The notes under the pieces are model-generated. The model had not been told where the DNA came from. It searched no databases and worked only from the letters and a program-made list of their open reading frames with translations. Source: a virus (lineage: Duplodnaviria; Heunggongvirae; Uroviricota; Caudoviricetes). From it: 64,000 nt of DNA. The translations under genes were made by a program, and so were the position numbers. The DNA is taken from the IMG/VR virus record IMGVR_UViG_3300032318_002198. One strand, 5' to 3'. Shown one piece after another: positions 16,405-51,735 of the stretch. The number at the start of each line of letters is the position of its first letter. Positions within the stretch are counted from its first letter, which is position 1.

Positions 16405-17610
16405 TTATCCGTCTGCTTTTGGTTTCAAAGCTTTACTTAATGCTTGACGTTCTGGTACAACTTCACCAGCAATAGTTGCAGTATTGGTATTATTGATAAA
16501 ACCAGTTTTTTGTGTTTTACGAACTGCTTTGCCTGCATTAGGCCCGGTACTAACATCGTCGACACCGAAGTTATTCAACGTCATTCTAACATTATCTTCG
16601 TATTTAAGCCAATGTTGTCCATCAAATCTAAATAATCTATTTGGTAGATAATCTGTTCTAAGATAGAATTGTCCTCTAACAGCATTATTGGGAAATGTTA
16701 TACCGAATCCATATGGCGATCCATTAGTGGGAACACCATCGCCTGTTAGATACCCGACATACAGATCTTTCTTCGGACTATGCAATACTATACTTGCATC
16801 GTAACTGGCATTTTCAATACTTGCATCCTGATCTACGGTGGATGCATCGGCGATATCTAACAAACCATCTTCTCTTTTTGGTAAAACGTAAAGATGTTGA
16901 GTATCGTAACCGCTGAGAGGAGCATCTTCTTCGGCTTGTGCTATAATTTGATTATTAATATCGATACTTTGTTTATATGACGACAACAGATCTCGTAATG
17001 TACTACCGTCTCCTGCTCCCGAATCTTGATCGAGTATTTCTTTGAATTCCTGACTATCAACTAACGGAACACATTTGGCTCTTAATAAATGAGGATACCA
17101 TGTTGCACTGAAACCCGCCGCAGGTCTTGTAACATCTTGAACTACATAAAATCTACGTAATGCAACCAAGCTATCATCCAATGCATATTCGTCTTTTAAA
17201 TGAGGTAACTCTATAACATCGCCAGTCATGATTTTTCTACCTACCATATCGACACAATTTCTTAAATGAAAATGAATCATAATAGTATCGTTATTAAGAA
17301 ATAATCCAAATTGACTTAGATTAAAATCTAAATCTTGCATTTGGTAAATACCCCGCATTACATAGATATCCGGATCGTAATGTCTATCACGATTTTCCAT
17401 AAAAATTAGGTCTTGTATGCCTAATTCTGAAATAGGATTTGTATTATTTGGTAGTGAAGGAGAGCTTGCTCCATCTGCTGGATTTACAGGACCTAGATAT
17501 TTGTGTAAAAAACAATCAGTTCCTCCAACCTGGAACTGTTCGTTAATTACACGATCTAAAAATCGAAAATCGTTGCCCTTCTCGGGCCTATAAATGGAAA
17601 GACGTGGCAT
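16405..17610 (-). CDS. Neck/head-tail structural protein (gp14-like)
   Basis: IQDLIFMENRDR, LSQFGLFL, GDVIELPH; divergent from the gp13-like gene; late promoter TAAATA at 17618-17623 (-). Confidence 0.55.
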   Translation of the reverse strand: MPRLSIYRPEKGNDFRFLDRVINEQFQVGGTDCFLHKYLGPVNPADGASSPSLPNNTNPISELGIQDLIFMENRDRHYDPDIYVMRGIYQMQDLDFNLSQFGLFLNNDTIMIHFHLRNCVDMVGRKIMTGDVIELPHLKDEYALDDSLVALRRFYVVQDVTRPAAGFSATWYPHLLRAKCVPLVDSQEFKEILDQDSGAGDGSTLRDLLSSYKQSIDINNQIIAQAEEDAPLSGYDTQHLYVLPKREDGLLDIADASTVDQDASIENASYDASIVLHSPKKDLYVGYLTGDGVPTNGSPYGFGITFPNNAVRGQFYLRTDYLPNRLFRFDGQHWLKYEDNVRMTLNNFGVDDVSTGPNAGKAVRKTQKTGFINNTNTATIAGEVVPERQALSKALKPKADG

Positions 17611-17674
17611 AATAGTATATTTATCGAATAATATCTTAGAAATATTATCTTAACATGAAAAGATAAATATTACT

Positions 17675-18433
17675 ATGAATGAAAACGAATCAGAACGCCA
17701 AAAAGTAATCGAATATTGTCAACTTATGTTAGGCAGTGGTATTGTGGACGTGGAGTTAGATCCTGTACATTATAATATTGCGATAGATCGTGCCTTAAGT
17801 AAGTTCAGACAGCGTAGCAGCAATGCTATCGAAGAAAGTTATGCGTTTTTAACATTACAAGTTGATGTAAATGAGTATATTCTTCCAAAAGAAGTAATGC
17901 AAGTTCGTCAACTTTTTCGTCGTTCTATAGGTAGTCGTAGTGGCGGTGGTGATGGCGGGACATTATTTGAGCCATTCAATTTAGCATATTCAAATACGTA
18001 TCTATTAAGTAGTACACATATGGGCGGTTTAGCCACATATTATGCTTTTGCAAGTTATCAAAAAATGGTCGGTAAAATGTTTGGTAGTGATATTAATTTT
18101 ACATTTAATAAAACAACCAAGGTACTAACGTTAATGCAACGTCCTAGAGCTGAAGAAGAATTACTATTGTGGCAGTATAATTATCGTCCGGATTTTAATC
18201 TGTTGCAAGATCCATATGCAGGACACTGGTTAAAGGATTATAGCCTAGCCACTTCAAAAATTATTTTAGGCGAAGGACGAGAAAAATTCGCTCAAATCGC
18301 CAGCCCGCAAGGTGGAACGTCGTTAAACGGACAGGCTTTGAAGGCCGAAGGTAAAGCCGAAATTGAAGTTTTAGAATTAGATCTGATCAATTACAAGGCC
18401 GGCGACTCGCCGCTCACTTGGATCACCGGATAA
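17675..18433 (+). CDS. Neck protein (T4 gp13-like)
   Basis: LG...VDVELD, WLKDYSLA...GEGREKF...GGTSLNG; TAAATA at 17664-17669. Confidence 0.75.
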   Translation: MNENESERQKVIEYCQLMLGSGIVDVELDPVHYNIAIDRALSKFRQRSSNAIEESYAFLTLQVDVNEYILPKEVMQVRQLFRRSIGSRSGGGDGGTLFEPFNLAYSNTYLLSSTHMGGLATYYAFASYQKMVGKMFGSDINFTFNKTTKVLTLMQRPRAEEELLLWQYNYRPDFNLLQDPYAGHWLKDYSLATSKIILGEGREKFAQIASPQGGTSLNGQALKAEGKAEIEVLELDLINYKAGDSPLTWITG

Positions 18434-24891: not shown

Positions 24892-24916
24892 AAACCCGGT
24901 ATCTACCGGGTTTTTT
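24892..24916 (+). terminator. Rho-independent terminator
   Basis: aaacccggta-tc-taccgggtttttt. Confidence 0.8.
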
Positions 24917-24935
24917 ATTGGCTAAATAATACACT

Positions 24936-26078
24936 ATGAGCAATGCATTTACAAATTTCTTAGGTAGTGTGGCATCGGGTATTTTTGATACTTCTGCTGA
25001 TTTGAAAACATATCAACATGCAGATAGATTATATGTCAAAGATACATATGCACGTTCTCCTAAACTAGGCTTTTTATATTATGTCATTTTTGACATTAAT
25101 CGAGCTGCATTGAAAGATGCTAAATGGATTGATAGAAGTAAAAATGCTGTCGGTGTATTAGTTAAAACCATAGATCTCCCAAAGTTTCAAATTGCTGTCG
25201 AAGAAGTAAATCAATATAATCGCAAAACATTAATACAAACTAAAATTAAATATCAACCGATAAACATAACATTTCATGATGATAACAGTAACATCATAAC
25301 TGACTTGTGGAAAAATTATTATCAATATTATTTTGCAGATAGTAATTATGGTTCAACAAATAGAACAAATATAGAATCTTACCGAGATACAAAATATAAC
25401 GAAACTAGTTATACATATGGTCTAGCTAACTTTCAAAAAGATCCATTTTTTAATAAAATAGAAATATATGTTTTTCACCAACAGAAATATTCACAATATA
25501 GTTTAATAAATCCATTAGTATCGGATTGGTCTCATGATTCGTTGGAACAAGATCAAGGATCAAAAACTTTAACAAATAGAATGACAGTAAATTACGAAAA
25601 TGTAATTTACAATACTGATCCTGCTAATCGTGTTACAAAAAATAAGCCCGAAGGATTCAATCAATATTATGATAAAACACCTAGTCCGTTAAGCGTAGGC
25701 GGGAATGGTACCAACACAATATTTGGTCCTGGTGGTGTTATAGCCGGTTCCGACGGTGTTTTGGGTTCGGTAATGAACGCAAAAAGCCCATTGGATTTCT
25801 TAGGAGCAGGAATACAAGTAGTTCAATTAGGAAAAAATGTAAAATCTCTAAGTAAAGCAGGATTAAAATCTGAAGGATATAGTATCCTCGGAGGAGTATT
25901 AGGAAATATACAAACTACAGGAAATCAACCCGGGGGTGTTACTGATAGTATACGAGGATCTATTAACAACGGAAATTTTGGTGCATTGGGACAAACTGGT
26001 GTAGGGTTATTTAAAAATGCAACAGTCGATAGTACCACAACGGGTAATCTTAAAAAATTAACAAATAGAGGCGGCTAA
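24936..26078 (+). CDS. Tube-related baseplate protein (gp54/gp48-like)
   Basis: DLPKF...NQYNRK...YQPINITFHDD tube-fold motif; late promoter. Confidence 0.55.
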   Translation: MSNAFTNFLGSVASGIFDTSADLKTYQHADRLYVKDTYARSPKLGFLYYVIFDINRAALKDAKWIDRSKNAVGVLVKTIDLPKFQIAVEEVNQYNRKTLIQTKIKYQPINITFHDDNSNIITDLWKNYYQYYFADSNYGSTNRTNIESYRDTKYNETSYTYGLANFQKDPFFNKIEIYVFHQQKYSQYSLINPLVSDWSHDSLEQDQGSKTLTNRMTVNYENVIYNTDPANRVTKNKPEGFNQYYDKTPSPLSVGGNGTNTIFGPGGVIAGSDGVLGSVMNAKSPLDFLGAGIQVVQLGKNVKSLSKAGLKSEGYSILGGVLGNIQTTGNQPGGVTDSIRGSINNGNFGALGQTGVGLFKNATVDSTTTGNLKKLTNRGG

Positions 26079-26922: not shown

Positions 26923-27405
26923 ATGACTCGCAGACTTGAAGAAATTTTAAATATTGAACCTGCAGATAAAGAACCGATTATTCACCCTGAACCCGAAGAA
27001 GTTACTTCTTCTCAAATAGATTTACAAGACAGACTAGAAGAATTTGATAAAATAGCATCTGCATTGCCAAAAGTGGTAGGATTAGGAGAGTTAGCTGATC
27101 AAGAATTAGATGATTTAGCAAAAAAAGCAGAAGAAGCATATGGCAATTTAATGGATTTAGGTATGAGTGTCGAACCAAGATATGGCACACGTATGTTTGA
27201 GGTGGCAGCACAGATGATGAACGCTGCAATAACAGCTAAATCTCATAAAATTGACAAGAAGTTAAAAATGGTTGACTTGCAACTTAAAAAACTAGCGATA
27301 GAGAAAAAATCATCAACTAAAGAAGAAACTCCTATCGAAGGAGAAGGTTATATTATTACTGATCGTAATAGTATCCTCCAAAAACTTAAGAATTTGAATA
27401 AATAA
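26923..27405 (+). CDS. Hypothetical helical protein (possible terminase small subunit)
   Basis: Helical/coiled-coil, upstream of terL; assignment by position only. Confidence 0.35.
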   Translation: MTRRLEEILNIEPADKEPIIHPEPEEVTSSQIDLQDRLEEFDKIASALPKVVGLGELADQELDDLAKKAEEAYGNLMDLGMSVEPRYGTRMFEVAAQMMNAAITAKSHKIDKKLKMVDLQLKKLAIEKKSSTKEETPIEGEGYIITDRNSILQKLKNLNK

Positions 27406-27411
27406 TTAACT

Positions 27412-27999
27412 ATGAAAAATTTTAAAGACTATCTAACCGAATCAAAAAAGAATTATGATTTTCGAGTAAAAGTTGCAGGTGAATTTACCACCGAACAAGA
27501 ATCAAAATTAAAAGATCTTTTAAACCGATATACTGTTAGTGAATTCAAAAAGAAAGGTAAAACTCCTATACAAGAGTTACCATTGGATTTCCCTCAGGTA
27601 AAAAACTGTGAAGTGAATATTTTTGAATTTACTGTTGATTATCCAACTACATCATTTGAACTAACAGAATATCTAAGTTCTGGTTTAGGATTACATAAAA
27701 AATATTTGGTTGTACGTCGTCCGGGTGAGCCCGGCGAAGAATATCAACAGCCAGTAGAGGAACGAAAAGGTGCATTATTAACAGATCCTGATTATAAAGA
27801 AGCTCCTAATGCAAAATTTGAAGATTATTACGGCGACAAATACAATAGCGGTTTTGTCAAAGAATTAAACGACCTTCTTAAACTTCAACGTAAAGAACGC
27901 GGCGAAGAAATTCCAGCAACTGAAGCAGTAAAATATAATACTGATTCAGAAGCAGGAAAAACAACTGTGTTAAAAACATCACCCGACCCAAGGAAATAA
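27412..27999 (+). CDS. Hypothetical head-associated protein
   Basis: MKNFKDYLTES N-terminus typical of T4-like internal/core proteins; late promoter. Confidence 0.5.
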   Translation: MKNFKDYLTESKKNYDFRVKVAGEFTTEQESKLKDLLNRYTVSEFKKKGKTPIQELPLDFPQVKNCEVNIFEFTVDYPTTSFELTEYLSSGLGLHKKYLVVRRPGEPGEEYQQPVEERKGALLTDPDYKEAPNAKFEDYYGDKYNSGFVKELNDLLKLQRKERGEEIPATEAVKYNTDSEAGKTTVLKTSPDPRK

Positions 28000-28866: not shown

Positions 28867-28895
28867 AAAATAGCCACCGCAGTGGCTATTTTTTT
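28867..28895 (+). terminator. Rho-independent terminator
   Basis: aaaatagccac-cgca-gtggctattttttt. Confidence 0.85.
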
Positions 28896-28909
28896 CATTA
28901 AATACATAT

Positions 28910-29551
28910 ATGGGCAGCAAAAATCTTGACGGAAAAATTGTAAAACAGGCACACGCCACACAACGTTTTACAGAAGAAGATTTAGAAAATCTAACTAAAT
29001 GCATGGATCCAATTAATGGTCCACATTTCTTTCTTGAAAACTTTTTCTATATACAACATCCTGTTAAAGGAAGGATGAAGTATCAGCCGTTTGAATATCA
29101 ACGCAGGCTAATAGATAGTTATCATCAACATAGATTTAATGTAAATCTGTTAGGACGTCAGTTAGGAAAAACCACAACAGCATCTGGCTATCTATTATGG
29201 TATGCAATGTTTATACCGGATAGTACAATTCTTATAGCAGCACACAAATATACCGGTGCTAAGGAAATTATGCAACGTATTCGTTATGCATACGAAATGT
29301 GTCCTGATAATATTAGAGCAGGTTGTACAAGTTATAATAAAGAAAGTATAGAATTTGAAAACGGTAGTCGTATAGTTGCACAAACAACAACTGAAACAAC
29401 CGGACGGGGTATGTCCTTGTCACTATTATATTGTTTAGACGGAGAAACGTCATTCGTTAAGGTAAGAAATAAAAAAACCCTAATTGAAGAAGAAATTTCT
29501 CTCACCGAATTATATACAAGACTGTATAATCCTGTTAAAATTATCGAGTGA
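28910..29551 (+). CDS. terL: Terminase large subunit N-terminal half fused to 39-aa N-intein
   Basis: YQRRL, Walker A GRQLGKTT, ENGS, GRGMSLSLLY, then intein block A CLDGET... Confidence 0.9.
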   Translation: MGSKNLDGKIVKQAHATQRFTEEDLENLTKCMDPINGPHFFLENFFYIQHPVKGRMKYQPFEYQRRLIDSYHQHRFNVNLLGRQLGKTTTASGYLLWYAMFIPDSTILIAAHKYTGAKEIMQRIRYAYEMCPDNIRAGCTSYNKESIEFENGSRIVAQTTTETTGRGMSLSLLYCLDGETSFVKVRNKKTLIEEEISLTELYTRLYNPVKIIE

Positions 29552-29565
29552 CGAATTTGCTTTCG

Positions 29566-29573
29566 TATAAATA
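29566..29573 (+). promoter_or_regulatory. T4-type late promoter TATAAATA overlapping a copy of the terL DEFAFV-coding sequence
   Basis: gacgaatttgctttcgTATAAATAgccgcATG. Confidence 0.75.
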
Positions 29574-29578
29574 GCCGC

Positions 29579-30469
29579 ATGAATACTAAATTAACTCAAT
29601 TCATTAAAAGAAATCAGGTGCGAAATGCACACTTATATCAACCTGGATTAACACCGGGGTATGATTATGTGGTTTGCCCGGTCAGTAATCAAAGAATGAG
29701 CATGATAAAATCTTCTTATATAGAAAAGGTGTTAGGGCTAAGAGTAGATCAATATGATCAATTATATCCTGGTGCTAAGTCTGTATGCTCTAAAAGAAGC
29801 GAAAATATTAAAACTGGATTAAAACAAATTGATCCAAATACAGGTCTAACAAAATATCAAATTTCTCAAAAAAAAGCCAAACAACTTTTATCAACTCCGG
29901 ATCAAAATGGGATAACTGGTTATCAAAAGAAAGGTCAAAAGACTCGAAATACACATATGAGTAAAATTGATCAATTTGGTAGAAATGGATATTCTCAACT
30001 AGCATCCAGGGCAATTATCAAAGGAAATAATACAAAAGCCATTAAAGGAATAATTTCCTTAAATAAGGATGTATTTAAAAGATATAAAACAATTGTTTTA
30101 TATTTAACGGAAAAACACAGAAAAAAAATAACTGTTGGGTATGTTACGGGGTTAGCAGGAAAGGAAAATGCATGGCATATTGATCATAAATTTTCAATTC
30201 TAAAAGGTTATCAACAAAAAGTTAGTCCTTTTATAATTGGACATTTGTATAATTTAGAAATGGTGCCATGGAAAGAAAACATATCAAAACATTCAAAATG
30301 TAGCATAGATTTAAAAGAATTATTATTAAAATGTGATTACAATTTAAATCAATCAAATATTGAATTCAATAAAATTATTCAGTTAATCAACGAAGATATT
30401 AAAAATAGTATTCCGCCAAATGCTGCTTATTTAATAGAAAGATACAATGGAACAAATTTATTGCCCTAA
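29579..30469 (+). mobile_element. HNH-like endonuclease gene between split-intein halves
   Basis: WHIDHKFSI...HLYNLEMVPWKENISK; basic N-terminal region; overlaps the start of the IntC ORF. Confidence 0.7.
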
Positions 30470-31847
30470 CACCGATTACGAAATTTTGACACCAAATGGG
30501 TGGGAAGATTTTGAAGGAATATTTTTAAATAAAAACGCAAATAAAAAATCTAAAAAAATATTGTTTTCAAACAATACATTTATTACGGCAACAAACGAAC
30601 ACAAATTTTTTAAAGATAAAAAAGAAAGTATGGTAGACACATTAAATATCGGAGATTTTTTAGATTCAGAAGACGGGCCTTTAGAAATTACTGATATTAT
30701 TGAAACAACTCTTGAAGATACCTATGAAATTTTTAATGCAACTAACCATGTAATATTTGTAAATAAGATTAATTCGCACCAGTGCGATGAATTTGCGTTC
30801 GTAGCACCAAATATTGCATCCGAATTCTGGACTTCAATATCGCCCACTTTGGCAACAGGTGGTAAAGCAATTATAACCAGCACTCCGAATAGCGACGAAG
30901 ATCAATTTGCACAAATCTGGAAAGAAGCTAATAAGAGATTTGATGAGCATGGAAATACTACTGAAGTTGGACAAAATGGATTCTTTCCGTTCAGTGCTAA
31001 ATGGAATGAACATCCCGACCGCGACGAAGCTTGGGCCAATACAGAACGTAGTCGTATCGGCGACGAAAGATTTCGCCGAGAACATGATATTGAATTCTTA
31101 GTTTTTGATGAAACTTTAATTAGTTCAATAAAATTGGCCGAATTGAAAGGTCAAGAACCTATTATGAAAATGGGTCAATGCCGTTGGTATAAAAAAATTA
31201 ATCCAAAAAATACCTATATTATTGCTTTGGATCCAAGTTTAGGTACCGGAGGTGACCCAGCAGCAATACAGGTTATAGAATTACCTACTTTCGATCAAGT
31301 TGCAGAATGGACTCACAATCTAACACCTGTTCAAGGGCAAGTTAGAATTTTAAGAGACATTTGCAATTATATTAAAGACGAAGCTGCGAGAAAGAAATCT
31401 GACGTTTCTCTCTACTATAGTATCGAAAACAATACGGTTGGCGAAGCAGCATTAGTTGCAATGAGCGAAATAGGCGAGGAAAGCGTACATGGTTTATTTT
31501 TAAGTGAACCAATTAAAAAAGGACATGCCAGACGTTTTAGAAAAGGATTCAATACAACTCATTCTAGCAAAATTGCTATATGCGCAAAATTAAAACATTT
31601 AATTGAATCAGATAGAATGAAATTAAATTCTAAACAATTAATAAGTGAACTTAAAACATATGTTGCAAAAGGAATAAGTTTTGCAGGTAAGGGTGACATG
31701 AACGATGATTTAGTTAGTGCTATTCTATTAGCCCTGAGAATGATCATGATATTACAAGAATGGGATCCAGCAGTTTATGATAAACTTAGAGAAGAAATGC
31801 AGGACGAATGGATCATGCCTATGCCGATTTATATTAACAGCTTCTAA
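30447..31847 (+). CDS. terL: 112-aa C-intein fused to terminase large subunit C-terminal half
   Basis: ILTPNGWEDF, block B TNEHKF, block F/G DTYEI...INSHQ|CDEFAFV (Walker B); ITSTP; nuclease DPSLGTGGD, ENN, DDLVSA. Confidence 0.9.
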   Translation: MEQIYCPNTDYEILTPNGWEDFEGIFLNKNANKKSKKILFSNNTFITATNEHKFFKDKKESMVDTLNIGDFLDSEDGPLEITDIIETTLEDTYEIFNATNHVIFVNKINSHQCDEFAFVAPNIASEFWTSISPTLATGGKAIITSTPNSDEDQFAQIWKEANKRFDEHGNTTEVGQNGFFPFSAKWNEHPDRDEAWANTERSRIGDERFRREHDIEFLVFDETLISSIKLAELKGQEPIMKMGQCRWYKKINPKNTYIIALDPSLGTGGDPAAIQVIELPTFDQVAEWTHNLTPVQGQVRILRDICNYIKDEAARKKSDVSLYYSIENNTVGEAALVAMSEIGEESVHGLFLSEPIKKGHARRFRKGFNTTHSSKIAICAKLKHLIESDRMKLNSKQLISELKTYVAKGISFAGKGDMNDDLVSAILLALRMIMILQEWDPAVYDKLREEMQDEWIMPMPIYINSF

Positions 31848-31875
31848 ATATCTTATATAAAAGGCTAAATACAGG

Positions 31876-33828
31876 ATGAAACCAATACAAATAATTTCTC
31901 AAGATCTGTTTGATAAAATTCGTAGTCGTTTTAATAATTTAGAAATGGGCGGCGAAGACGGCAATGTGACTATTGATCCAGCCGATGCAAGATTTTATGA
32001 TTTTGATTTTGTTATTCAAGAACAAAATTTAGGTAGAGTAAGTATCAGTATTAATGATCTTGGCAGTTTAAAAATATATTACAGTCAAGGAATTACAGAA
32101 AATCAAGATTCGGAAATTAAAAAATATTGGTATAGTTTCTTACGAGAAATGAGATATTTTGCAATGAGAAGATTATTAAGATTTGATACCAGGGACATAT
32201 CAAAAACTAATCTGGATAAAAATGATTTTCAATATCTTGCAACCACTAAGCCCAAGGATGAAAAGAATATGAACATGAATGAATCTCGTTGGACTGGTAG
32301 AAATACCAGCAAAACTAGCAGACGTGTACAAGGTAAGACACAAGTTATTGTTCGTCACAAAGATCGAGTAAACGAAATGTTACCTTCTGCTCGTAGCAAA
32401 CCATCGAATATTACTTCGATTTTTATTCAAAATGCCGACGGCGAGAGATTTAAAGCTCCATTTAATTATTTGCCTTTGGCATTTGCATTGGCTCAACATA
32501 TCGATCACGGCGGTGTACCATATGATTCACCTGCTAAAAAAATTATAGGAATGTGTGAACAAATCGCACAACTAAGTGAATTTAGAAAACATATAAAATC
32601 ATCAAAATTACATGGCGATAGTTTGGGAATTGTAGATAGGGCTGTAAGCCGTTTAAACGAACTGAAGAACACATTAGAACTATTAAGCAAACGTCGACAT
32701 TATGAATCATGGCTAGCTGAATTTAACGAAAGTGGAGAAGGAACCGAAGATGAGTTAATTGAATTATCTCCGACACAATTTGAAGATTATAAATCAAAAT
32801 TTACTCAAAGCGAATTTAACGAAACCCTAACACAATATTTTCCGCTAATACATAGTATTATGCAGGAAAAAATTAATCTAGAAGATTACGTAAGTGAAAA
32901 TGAAAACTCTGAAATAAAAAACGAAGAACAAGCAGTTAATGAATTCAATCAATTTGAAGAATGGGCAGAAATAGTCGAATCTGGCAATTTAGATGTATCT
33001 GCAATTAAGAATAATCTAAATGGACAAGATTTAGTGGCAACACTTTCTGAAATACCGTTAGGTCCCGGAGGTTCCGTAGCATGGGCTGAATTGAGTAATA
33101 TATTTGACCTAGATGAACGAGACGAAGATGACGAGGCATTGAAATCTCAATTGGCTGCAAAAGCAGAAACCGCCGATCAAACTACTGTTGGAATGGATGG
33201 CCCTGCTATGGATATTTTTAAAAGTTGGATCAAAGATACCTTCCCACAATGGCAACAAGATTTACCAGAATTATTCCAACAACAACAAGAACCCCAACAA
33301 CAAACAACTCCTCAACCTGAAACTGGTATGCAACCCGCACCAGCACCGCAACCGGGTGTAAACCCAAATGCAACACCTAGCCCTGAAATGGGGATGAATC
33401 CTGCTGCTAAACCGGTTGCCGAAGGCAAAGGCAATATGATGCAAGAAATTGCAGAAACAGTAAAACGTTTTTATAATGCATCTAACGAAGATGTTGGACC
33501 ATTTAGAAGCGAAGAATCAGTTTGTTTAGAAGTTCAAAAAACCATAAGTGAAAAATATGGTGAATCTCAAGGAAAACGAGCTGGATTGATTGCTAAGAAA
33601 TTTATGGAAAAATTAACCAAAGCATGGGAAATGAAACACCATAAAGACAAAGAAGAATTAGCACCAGTCGCCGACGACGGTTTGGCGAGATTGAAAGAGT
33701 TGCTAGGAAATGTCAAAACCAAATTTGAAAATATCAATAAAGATAATACAGAAATAAACTCAGGATCTCAAGGTATATCAGAAAGTGAAATGTCTGCAAT
33801 ATTAAAATTAGCCGGTTTGGCAAAATAA
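31876..33828 (+). CDS. Conserved large hypothetical (probable virion/head) protein
   Basis: Late promoter; acidic and Pro/Gln linkers; C-terminal ILKLAGLAK. Confidence 0.55.
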   Translation: MKPIQIISQDLFDKIRSRFNNLEMGGEDGNVTIDPADARFYDFDFVIQEQNLGRVSISINDLGSLKIYYSQGITENQDSEIKKYWYSFLREMRYFAMRRLLRFDTRDISKTNLDKNDFQYLATTKPKDEKNMNMNESRWTGRNTSKTSRRVQGKTQVIVRHKDRVNEMLPSARSKPSNITSIFIQNADGERFKAPFNYLPLAFALAQHIDHGGVPYDSPAKKIIGMCEQIAQLSEFRKHIKSSKLHGDSLGIVDRAVSRLNELKNTLELLSKRRHYESWLAEFNESGEGTEDELIELSPTQFEDYKSKFTQSEFNETLTQYFPLIHSIMQEKINLEDYVSENENSEIKNEEQAVNEFNQFEEWAEIVESGNLDVSAIKNNLNGQDLVATLSEIPLGPGGSVAWAELSNIFDLDERDEDDEALKSQLAAKAETADQTTVGMDGPAMDIFKSWIKDTFPQWQQDLPELFQQQQEPQQQTTPQPETGMQPAPAPQPGVNPNATPSPEMGMNPAAKPVAEGKGNMMQEIAETVKRFYNASNEDVGPFRSEESVCLEVQKTISEKYGESQGKRAGLIAKKFMEKLTKAWEMKHHKDKEELAPVADDGLARLKELLGNVKTKFENINKDNTEINSGSQGISESEMSAILKLAGLAK

Positions 33829-47498: not shown

Positions 47499-47527
47499 AC
47501 CTCTCACTATTTCAAATAAATAAAAAC

Positions 47528-48364
47528 ATGCAAAACCTACCAGTCTATTTATATCCAAACTCGATCACTCTGACATTAGATCTGGATATTAACACCCGAG
47601 GAGTTAACCAAGTTATGTATCAAAGAGATCTAAAAATACAAAAAGGAATTAAAAATCAAATTAGAGTACAATTTAAAAATAGTGATCAAAAAAATGTAAA
47701 AATATATTCGACACAAACATTTGTGTTTAGCATGTTTGATGCAACAGAACAAAGATTACTTATTGAAAAAAATCTCGATATTTTGGATGTCAATACCACT
47801 TCTACTAGAGGACAGGCTCTTTTAACACTATCTGAAAGCGATACAATTGATCTCCCTAAATCTGACTATACCTATAGTGTAAAAGTATTAGATACCGACG
47901 GAAGTTATCTTCCTGCATATTCTAATACATATTATGGAATGGCTGGTACATTACATCTTACTGAGGAAATATATCCGAAATTGATCCCCAGTCGAGAAAT
48001 AAAGTCATTCTTACCAACTTTTAACGGTAATACTAATCTCTACGAACATAGAAGCGATAATATCTACGCATATCCAGAATATAACGGAAATAGTGCATTG
48101 CATACAGTTGCCTTATATATGACTGGTTTTAGAGGAACAGTATATTTACAAGCAACATTATACAATACTCCTGCATCTTTTGATAGATATGCAACTATAA
48201 CTTCTCGTACCTATAACAATTTTACTGGTGTAGATTATATTAACTTTAATGGTGTATACAGTTACATTAGGTTGATGTATATTCCATCAACTAAACCCGG
48301 CGAATCTACTAACGATAATCCCACATACTTCGGTTCGTTTGACAAAGTGTTATATAGAAATTAA
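47528..48364 (+). CDS. Hypothetical (late, possibly structural) protein
   Basis: TAAATA at 47517; beta-rich sequence. Confidence 0.55.
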   Translation: MQNLPVYLYPNSITLTLDLDINTRGVNQVMYQRDLKIQKGIKNQIRVQFKNSDQKNVKIYSTQTFVFSMFDATEQRLLIEKNLDILDVNTTSTRGQALLTLSESDTIDLPKSDYTYSVKVLDTDGSYLPAYSNTYYGMAGTLHLTEEIYPKLIPSREIKSFLPTFNGNTNLYEHRSDNIYAYPEYNGNSALHTVALYMTGFRGTVYLQATLYNTPASFDRYATITSRTYNNFTGVDYINFNGVYSYIRLMYIPSTKPGESTNDNPTYFGSFDKVLYRN

Positions 48365-51385: not shown

Positions 51386-51453
51386 ATTACTATTTAACAT
51401 AACCGATTTCATATATGTAAATTAACTAATCTTTTTTATTTAAATATAATCAT

Positions 51454-51735
51454 ATGTTGAATAAAAAAGATTATATACCAAAAAACCTACGTAAATCCAT
51501 AATTGAAAGAGATGGATATTATTGTGTATATTGCGACGATGATCTTAAAGATCAAGAAATACACATAGATCACGTAATACCCGAATCTCGAGGCGGTACA
51601 ACAACTAGAGATAATTTACAGGTTACTTGTCGTAAATGTAACTTGTCCAAAGGTACTTTGTCAGAAAAAGAATTTACAGATAAACTTAGAACCCGAGCTT
51701 TGAATATTCTTTCCCGTTTGGGATATAATAATTAA
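51454..51735 (+). CDS. Small HNH endonuclease
   Basis: RDGYYCVYC...HIDHVIPESRGG...NLQVTCRKCNLSK. Confidence 0.85.
   Translation: MLNKKDYIPKNLRKSIIERDGYYCVYCDDDLKDQEIHIDHVIPESRGGTTTRDNLQVTCRKCNLSKGTLSEKEFTDKLRTRALNILSRLGYNN

Follow-up and report, generated by a model that had tools for sequence, protein, structure and literature searches.

A conserved copy of the terL insertion-site sequence precedes the endonuclease gene of a split-intein cassette: a candidate autorepression operator

The terL gene of the window, by which we mean the whole 64-kb stretch of phage DNA that was analysed, is laid out as three tightly packed ORFs (28910-29551, 29579-30469 and 30447-31847), the start of the C-intein overlapping the 3′ end of the endonuclease gene by 23 nt. 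The locus comprises the following features.

28910..29431, + strand: terL N-extein, 174 codons, ending ...SLSLLY (Pfam Terminase_6N; PHROG terminase large subunit)
29432..29551, + strand: N-intein fragment, 39 aa (CLDGETS...KIIE), block A opening with Cys, TGA stop at 29549-29551
29550..29567, + strand: 18-nt copy of the C-extein D-E-F-A-F-V coding sequence, candidate operator (16/18 to 30786-30803)
29566..29573, + strand: TATAAATA, T4-type late-promoter-like octamer (gene-start association)
29579..30469, + strand: putative free-standing HNH-like homing endonuclease, 296 aa (PHROG 5104 and 1035 'endonuclease VII')
30447..30782, + strand: C-intein fragment, 112 aa, block B T-N-E-H, C-terminal S-H-Q (phmmer)
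30783..31847, + strand: terL C-extein, Cys+1 first (Pfam Terminase_6C)
30786-30803, + strand: genuine D-E-F-A-F-V (Walker B) coding sequence at the start of the C-extein, the model for the copy

The splice point of the N-extein was set by alignment with intein-less alleles. Joined, the exteins give a TerL of 528 aa that reads SLLY-CDEFAFV over the junction and aligns end to end with the intein-less alleles; among cultured phages, PA5oct-like and other jumbo phages have the closest terL genes (~54% identity). The host gene is split at the intein point, with intein halves on both sides and an endonuclease ORF between them, and the locus is in this respect a fractured gene. As in the fractured genes described before (Dassa et al. 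2009, PMC2677866; Aeh1 nrdA/mobE), the N-part with the N-intein is followed by the endonuclease and then by the C-intein with the C-part, the 3′ end of the endonuclease gene overlaps the next start and the 5′ region of the endonuclease contains TATAAATA; one of the examples given by Dassa et al. 2009 (PMC2677866) was a terminase locus. By its atypical split into a short N-fragment and a long C-fragment carrying block B, and by its sequence relationship to the family, the intein is of the AceL/GOS-TerL type. The consensus TerL intein CatC (PDB 6dsl_B) is a phmmer match of the C-intein fragment (E = 7e-6, residues 10-113), and the present intein resides in the same host protein as AceL-TerL, GOS-TerL and Cat-TerL (PDB 6dsl), with a similarly long C-fragment (112 aa here) containing block B and an N-fragment that is short in both cases (25-37 aa in AceL/GOS-TerL, 39 aa here; PMC11766414). 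It ends, however, in Gln and not in Asn. Primary papers aside, the AceL/GOS-TerL literature handles the intein as a protein-engineering tool. Trans-splicing is predicted from the intact Cys1, block B His, terminal His-Gln and Cys+1. Directly 5′ of the promoter-like ATTAAATA of terL-N, a terminator-like hairpin followed by a T-run was seen at 28870-28895.

The endonuclease has no match in Pfam even at E = 5, its profile found no match among PDB sequences, and a Foldseek search with its predicted model, which is confident (pLDDT 90), gave nothing at E ≤ 0.001. With VIA the whole model gave only Z < 4 and the N-terminal domain nothing convincing. PHROG 1035 'endonuclease VII' does match, at E = 7e-5, an H-I-D-H ... 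N-L ... N-x-x-K-H motif is kept in 33 endonuclease homologues, and residues 160-238 of the model are weakly similar to the GVE2 HNH endonuclease 5h0o (Z 3.9, rmsd 3.6 Å over 69 residues). The PHROG match, the motif, the model and the structural match support an HNH-like (beta-beta-alpha-metal) nuclease domain at residues about 160-240, an assignment made from weak hits. The Atlas look-alikes (NUMOD3, HNH and ROS/MucR clusters) all scored <0.9 and serve as leads only.

The copy opens at the second base of the N-intein TGA, one base out of frame with the N-intein, and its two mismatches to the C-extein (GAC/GAT and GCT/GCG) are both synonymous in the D-E-F-A-F-V reading. Its last two bases are the first two of TATAAATA, a 2-bp overlap; GCCGC then follows, and after this 5 nt gap the endonuclease ATG at 29579. 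The preliminary description had reported the 16/18 match, the synonymous differences, the out-of-frame position, the run into TATAAATA and the 5 nt to the ATG, and recomputation confirmed every one of these. No likeness to the C-extein was seen in the flanks of the 18-mer. When spacers were shuffled and compared with the 120 nt flanking the splice junctions, a 16/18 hit arose in 1 of 2000, and the exact degenerate D-E-F-A-F-V coding pattern occurs at two sites only in the 64 kb, namely the copy and the genuine C-extein.

In this phage TATAAATA behaves as a gene-start signal. Of its eight exact occurrences in the window, seven are correctly oriented and no more than 110 nt ahead of a gene start, a zone that makes up 5% of oriented positions (p = 7e-9). 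ORFs resembling gp55 were found in 5/5 related long contigs (E 1e-6 to 1e-8) and none in the 64-kb window. The arrangement TAAATA-N4-7-ATG without a Shine–Dalgarno sequence is found at 9/64 gene starts compared with 12/2345 of all ATGs (p = 5e-11); the nine genes include terL-N and the gene in portal position, while other genes carry strong AAGGAG sites. TAAATA arrangements of this kind were noted at 28897-28912, 31860-31878, 16405-17630 (- strand), 17655-17677, 24916-24938, 27392-27414, 47508-47530 and 51434-51456. The late octamer of T4 sits at -13 to -6. Applied here, this spacing would make the A of the ATG, or a base beside it, the first to be transcribed, which suggests a leaderless late mRNA; if transcription does start at the ATG, the copy would occupy about -29 to -12. 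That the late endonuclease transcript is probably leaderless also follows from the ATG lying 4-6 nt past TATAAATA with no Shine–Dalgarno sequence. The nine TAAATA genes suggest that some late mRNAs of this giant phage form a leaderless class, and the TATAAATA-N4-6-ATG layout which the endonuclease has in common with terL-N and the portal-position gene hints at the same for the phage group.

Related loci were gathered independently of the motif, through the C-intein/terL-C protein in IMG/VR and through an alignment of endonuclease homologues in metagenomes, and the copy was scored as present at ≥13/18 to the copy consensus GACGAGTTTGCATTTGTA. Conservation of the copy in related cassettes had been singled out as telling in the preliminary description, and the copy is indeed kept in 49 of 60 distinct homology-selected cassettes, the endonucleases of which are only 50-68% identical to that of the window. 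In nearly all cases (T)ATAAATA is joined to it and the ATG comes 4-6 nt later, and it is the best-conserved block of the junction, exceeding the flanking coding DNA on both sides. When all IMG/VR was scanned for the exact degenerate motif, 44 of the 47 stretches obtained belonged to this cassette.

Variation in the copy falls almost entirely on the codon third bases of the real target: positions 3, 6, 9, 12, 15 and 18 have a mean entropy of 0.86 bit compared with 0.14 elsewhere (exact permutation p = 1.1e-4). The entropy profile of the copy follows that of the intein-less targets, of which 43 distinct ones were compared (Spearman 0.66, p = 0.003), and the two consensus sequences agree at 17/18 positions. 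Eleven of the 18 positions are invariant or nearly so, while the spacer and the third bases of the flanking codons are randomised. Position 4 is changed from G to A in 9/58 copies, producing the codon AAG which is absent from every real target. We found no sign of concerted evolution of the copy with the C-extein of its own cassette (2.83 wobble matches vs 2.71 permuted, p = 0.27), and gene conversion with the local extein was rejected, there being no excess similarity of the copy to its own C-extein. This pattern would be most simply caused by a reader whose evolved target is a coding sequence and which disregards the degenerate positions in it, and that reader would be the homing endonuclease. 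The genuine D-E-F-A-F-V sequence of cassette alleles prefers GAT GAA ... GTG, while the copy and the intein-less targets have GAC GAG ... GTA; this shift in codon preference beside the intein could be a lineage effect or a drift off the best-recognised sequence.

Several ways of translating the copy were considered. A +1 shift at TGA-C of the RF2 kind, which would yield D-E-F-A-F-V-stop, was rejected, as the codon before the stop varies and a slippery site is absent; moreover, L135, L175, L177, L179 and L183 have a TAA as their stop, placed 1-3 nt upstream of the copy in other registers. A read-through fusion was rejected because the distance from the stop to the ATG is not frame-conserved; the register of the copy relative to both the N-intein stop and the endonuclease ATG differs between cassettes. 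An antisense ORF (29332-29580) was likewise rejected, since its third positions would fall on the most conserved phase. Because the registers vary, a TAA lies upstream in five cassettes and the antisense phase is wrong, the copy is untranslated.

Several loci in which parts of the cassette are missing or exchanged tie the copy to the endonuclease module. The same intein occurs as a contiguous mini-intein with neither endonuclease nor copy in L030/31 (about 700-900), and L060/61 (about 2800-2830) have a split intein in which the N-intein stop overlaps the C-intein ATG (ATGA), again with neither endonuclease nor copy. In L067 (3380-4010) an unrelated ORF of ~125 aa replaces the endonuclease and a decayed copy persists; in this single case, which serves as a natural control, the copy is changed at positions 1, 11 and 17, which elsewhere are invariant in 55-58 of 58 copies. 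These loci line up as a natural intein series, from a contiguous mini-intein through a split intein without endonuclease to a split intein with a replacement ORF and a decayed copy. L190 and L060 have in common a short stretch ending at the 3′ end of the N-intein, their other flanks being only about 51% identical, and beyond this stretch come, in L190, a few codons and then the copy, TATAAATA and the endonuclease. As L190 departs from L060 just before the copy, the endonuclease module has the copy at its left edge. Taken with its conservation, this makes it very probable that the 18-mer is functional and belongs to that module.

A second type of endonuclease, found at L168:2001-2936 and in similar form in L083, L095, L097, L112, L121, L126, L163 and L169-L183, has the N-terminal ~142 aa and the upstream copy in common with the first type and a different C-terminal domain, for which there is no Pfam hit; the accompanying C-intein is only 33-41% identical. 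It looks as if nuclease and intein had been swapped as modules while the recognition domain stayed constant. The conserved N-terminal domain (residues 1 to about 142) probably serves DNA recognition, and because the two types differ elsewhere yet keep the copy, this domain is the best candidate reader of the 18-mer. That the endonuclease reads the 18-mer at all we consider fairly likely.

The presumed targets of such an enzyme are intein-less alleles; close terL relatives (72-87% aa identity) were found without the cassette at exactly the same site. Their +1 residue, encoded by the codon aligned to 30783-30785, is mostly Ala (GCN), giving LLY-Ala-DEFAFV, and sometimes Leu, whereas all cassette alleles have Cys at +1. 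A minority of intein-less alleles, among L002-L080, read LLY-C-DEFAYV. The exteins of the window resemble those of intein-less alleles along their whole length, which fits a lateral arrival of the cassette. A co-conversion tract around the splice site was not seen: the exteins are intein-less-like throughout and the junction is too conserved to reveal one.

In phage T4, the endonuclease I-TevI represses its own synthesis through a homing-site-like operator (15/20) at a TATAAATA late promoter (PMC2988022). We think that the present endonuclease does the same, repressing its own late promoter via the copy as a homing-site-like operator, and give this reading somewhat better than even chances. 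In intein-less terL, the N-terminal domain would recognise the DNA that codes for D-E-F-A-F-V (Walker B), and the enzyme would cut nearby, probably on the N-extein side, which in cassette genomes is 1.35 kb off. The same domain would bind the half-site imitation overlapping TATAAATA by 2 bp, and the endonuclease sitting on the copy would keep its own gene from being transcribed late, in the manner of I-TevI in T4. On a terL read-through mRNA the internal endonuclease AUG, having no Shine–Dalgarno sequence, would be poorly translated. Were the 18-mer enough for binding, one would expect the enzyme on the phage's own C-extein as well, and since this intact site would be bound, immunity would have to rest on separate binding and cleavage sites. 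The parallel with I-TevI lies in a homing-site-like sequence placed directly at TATAAATA before the endonuclease ORF (16/18 here, 15/20 in I-TevI), in an operator that is expected to be bound and not efficiently cut, and in the proposed logic of late-only, self-limited expression. There are also differences. I-TevI is a GIY-YIG enzyme in a group I intron and not a free-standing HNH-like enzyme in a split intein, the presumed recognition domain is N-terminal here, the copy spans only the C-extein side of the insertion site, and the ATG lies 4-6 nt past the promoter with neither a Shine–Dalgarno sequence nor an RBS-sequestering hairpin. We would accordingly file the arrangement as a known kind of regulation, with good comparative support; its carrier would be new, namely a split intein together with an HNH-like enzyme that is free-standing. 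A more elaborate version, which we regard as rather doubtful, would make the cassette a target-sensing circuit: with one domain reading both operator and homing site, intein-less terL genomes arriving in a mixed infection would titrate the endonuclease off its operator and thereby cause de-repression when there is something to invade. Recognition domain and operator would, moreover, move through evolution as a single module able to join various nuclease domains and inteins.

An element acting at the RNA level might account for the copy instead, whether as a hairpin (ACGAA / loop / TTCGT) or as another motif on the terL read-through mRNA that controls translation, coupling or processing. Positions 2-6 can pair with positions 13-17 in 54-56 of 56 distinct copies, the sole non-wobble variant, G to A at position 4, retains its possible base pair with T15, and a strong GC hairpin is present at the same place in L184. 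Moreover, 15/16 such 5′ regions were found to bear hairpins, often containing TATAAATA (Dassa et al. 2009, PMC2677866). The stem in the window is nevertheless weak (-4.3 kcal/mol, z = +0.2 vs shuffles), the cassette mean is -2.2 kcal/mol with the stem appearing in the local minimum-energy fold of only 8/56, and the start codon is left uncovered. Positions 7-11, which would form the loop, hardly vary, stem changes able to preserve or reinforce the pairing (G at 2 or 5, C at 13) were never seen, and the partial palindrome is an automatic outcome of the D-E and F-V codons. We therefore hold a role of this kind to be unlikely. It is in this point that the locus departs from the known fractured genes: Dassa et al. 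2009 (PMC2677866) describe hairpins and two short conserved motifs and no copy of an extein target, while in the present locus there is only a marginal hairpin and it is the homing site that the conserved element imitates; the endonuclease is HNH-like here and GIY-YIG or Vsr-like there.

The comparative evidence for an operator would serve equally well if the endonuclease bound the copy for some other purpose, such as activation, tethering of the enzyme to its own genome or insulation of terL-C expression, the last of which could matter as transcripts would run on through the 23 nt overlap into the C-intein/terL-C gene. A position of about -29 to -12, overlapping the octamer, is however the classical place for steric repression, and repression is the only tested precedent, which leaves these purposes unlikely. 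Very improbable, in our estimation, is a promoter-associated element read by another phage or host factor, the extein likeness being a historical accident of the entry of the endonuclease gene. In favour of such an element, the copy is almost always fused to (T)ATAAATA. It is missing, though, from the other TATAAATA sites of the window, where the motif occurs nowhere else apart from the genuine C-extein; it is essentially confined to this cassette in all IMG/VR; and an unrelated reader would not be expected to free exactly the codon third positions. A general promoter element was rejected on the same grounds, other TATAAATA sites of the window lacking the copy and the IMG/VR motif being confined to the cassette. 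Least credible, and as good as excluded, is that the copy might be a neutral, functionless relic, left either by a target-site duplication, as the preliminary description had considered, or by the first invasion event. The copy does lie exactly at the left edge of the endonuclease module, where an illegitimate insertion would be expected to leave scars. Against this, 11/18 positions have remained (nearly) invariant while the proteins diverged to 50-60% identity, a divergence which also rules out a very recent common copying, and there is no homogenisation with the local extein. The conservation of the copy by itself excludes a relic; its linkage to the endonuclease, the adjoining gene-start motif and a variation that mirrors codon wobble all fit recognition by the endonuclease.

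If repression by the endonuclease through the copy is confirmed, self-repression via a mimic of the homing site would extend from the group I introns of T4 to free-standing endonucleases associated with inteins, and to uncultured giant phages. It would also mean that a recognition code can be read from genomes alone, with drift occurring only where codon degeneracy must be tolerated; the bases of the copy that do not drift would probably be the contacted ones, in an endonuclease family without a solved structure.

Not every cassette possesses the copy. Endonucleases that look intact occur without it in L176, in L184, where the GC hairpin stands where the copy would be, in several members of <50% identity and in the cultured Salicola phage SCTP-2, from which it follows that the copy is dispensable in some cassettes. 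In some of the copy-less cassettes with endonucleases of <50% identity, the endonuclease is fused in frame to upstream sequence. SCTP-2 (L196; MF360958.1, 215233-222132) has the endonuclease homologue, gene 225 (36% identical), directly 5′ of the C-intein/terL-C gene, with an ordinary Shine–Dalgarno sequence and no terL-N upstream. The upstream genes are on the opposite strand, so the gene for terL-N and the N-intein must be located in another part of the SCTP-2 genome. The annotated terminase large subunit, gene 224, begins with the C-intein, ending SQ|CDEFAFV, and contains a further contiguous intein.

An ordinary layout is combined with the copy in the distant cassettes L124, L167 and L192, where the copy and ATAAATA are followed by ~20 nt with GGAG and then the ATG. 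L124, a very distant cassette with a terL-C only 26% identical, has tandem partial copies in the first 170 nt (reverse strand), AAATTTGCTTTCGTA and AAATTCGCTTTTGTA, followed by TATAAATA, GGAGG and the ATG. Further intein-like insertions were noticed downstream of the first ~102 C-extein residues in L091, L114, L116, L130, L135, L137 and L150, and in the N-extein of L073, L186 and L005/L007, and some relatives carry upstream a second, distant terL-N-like segment of 33-38% identity.
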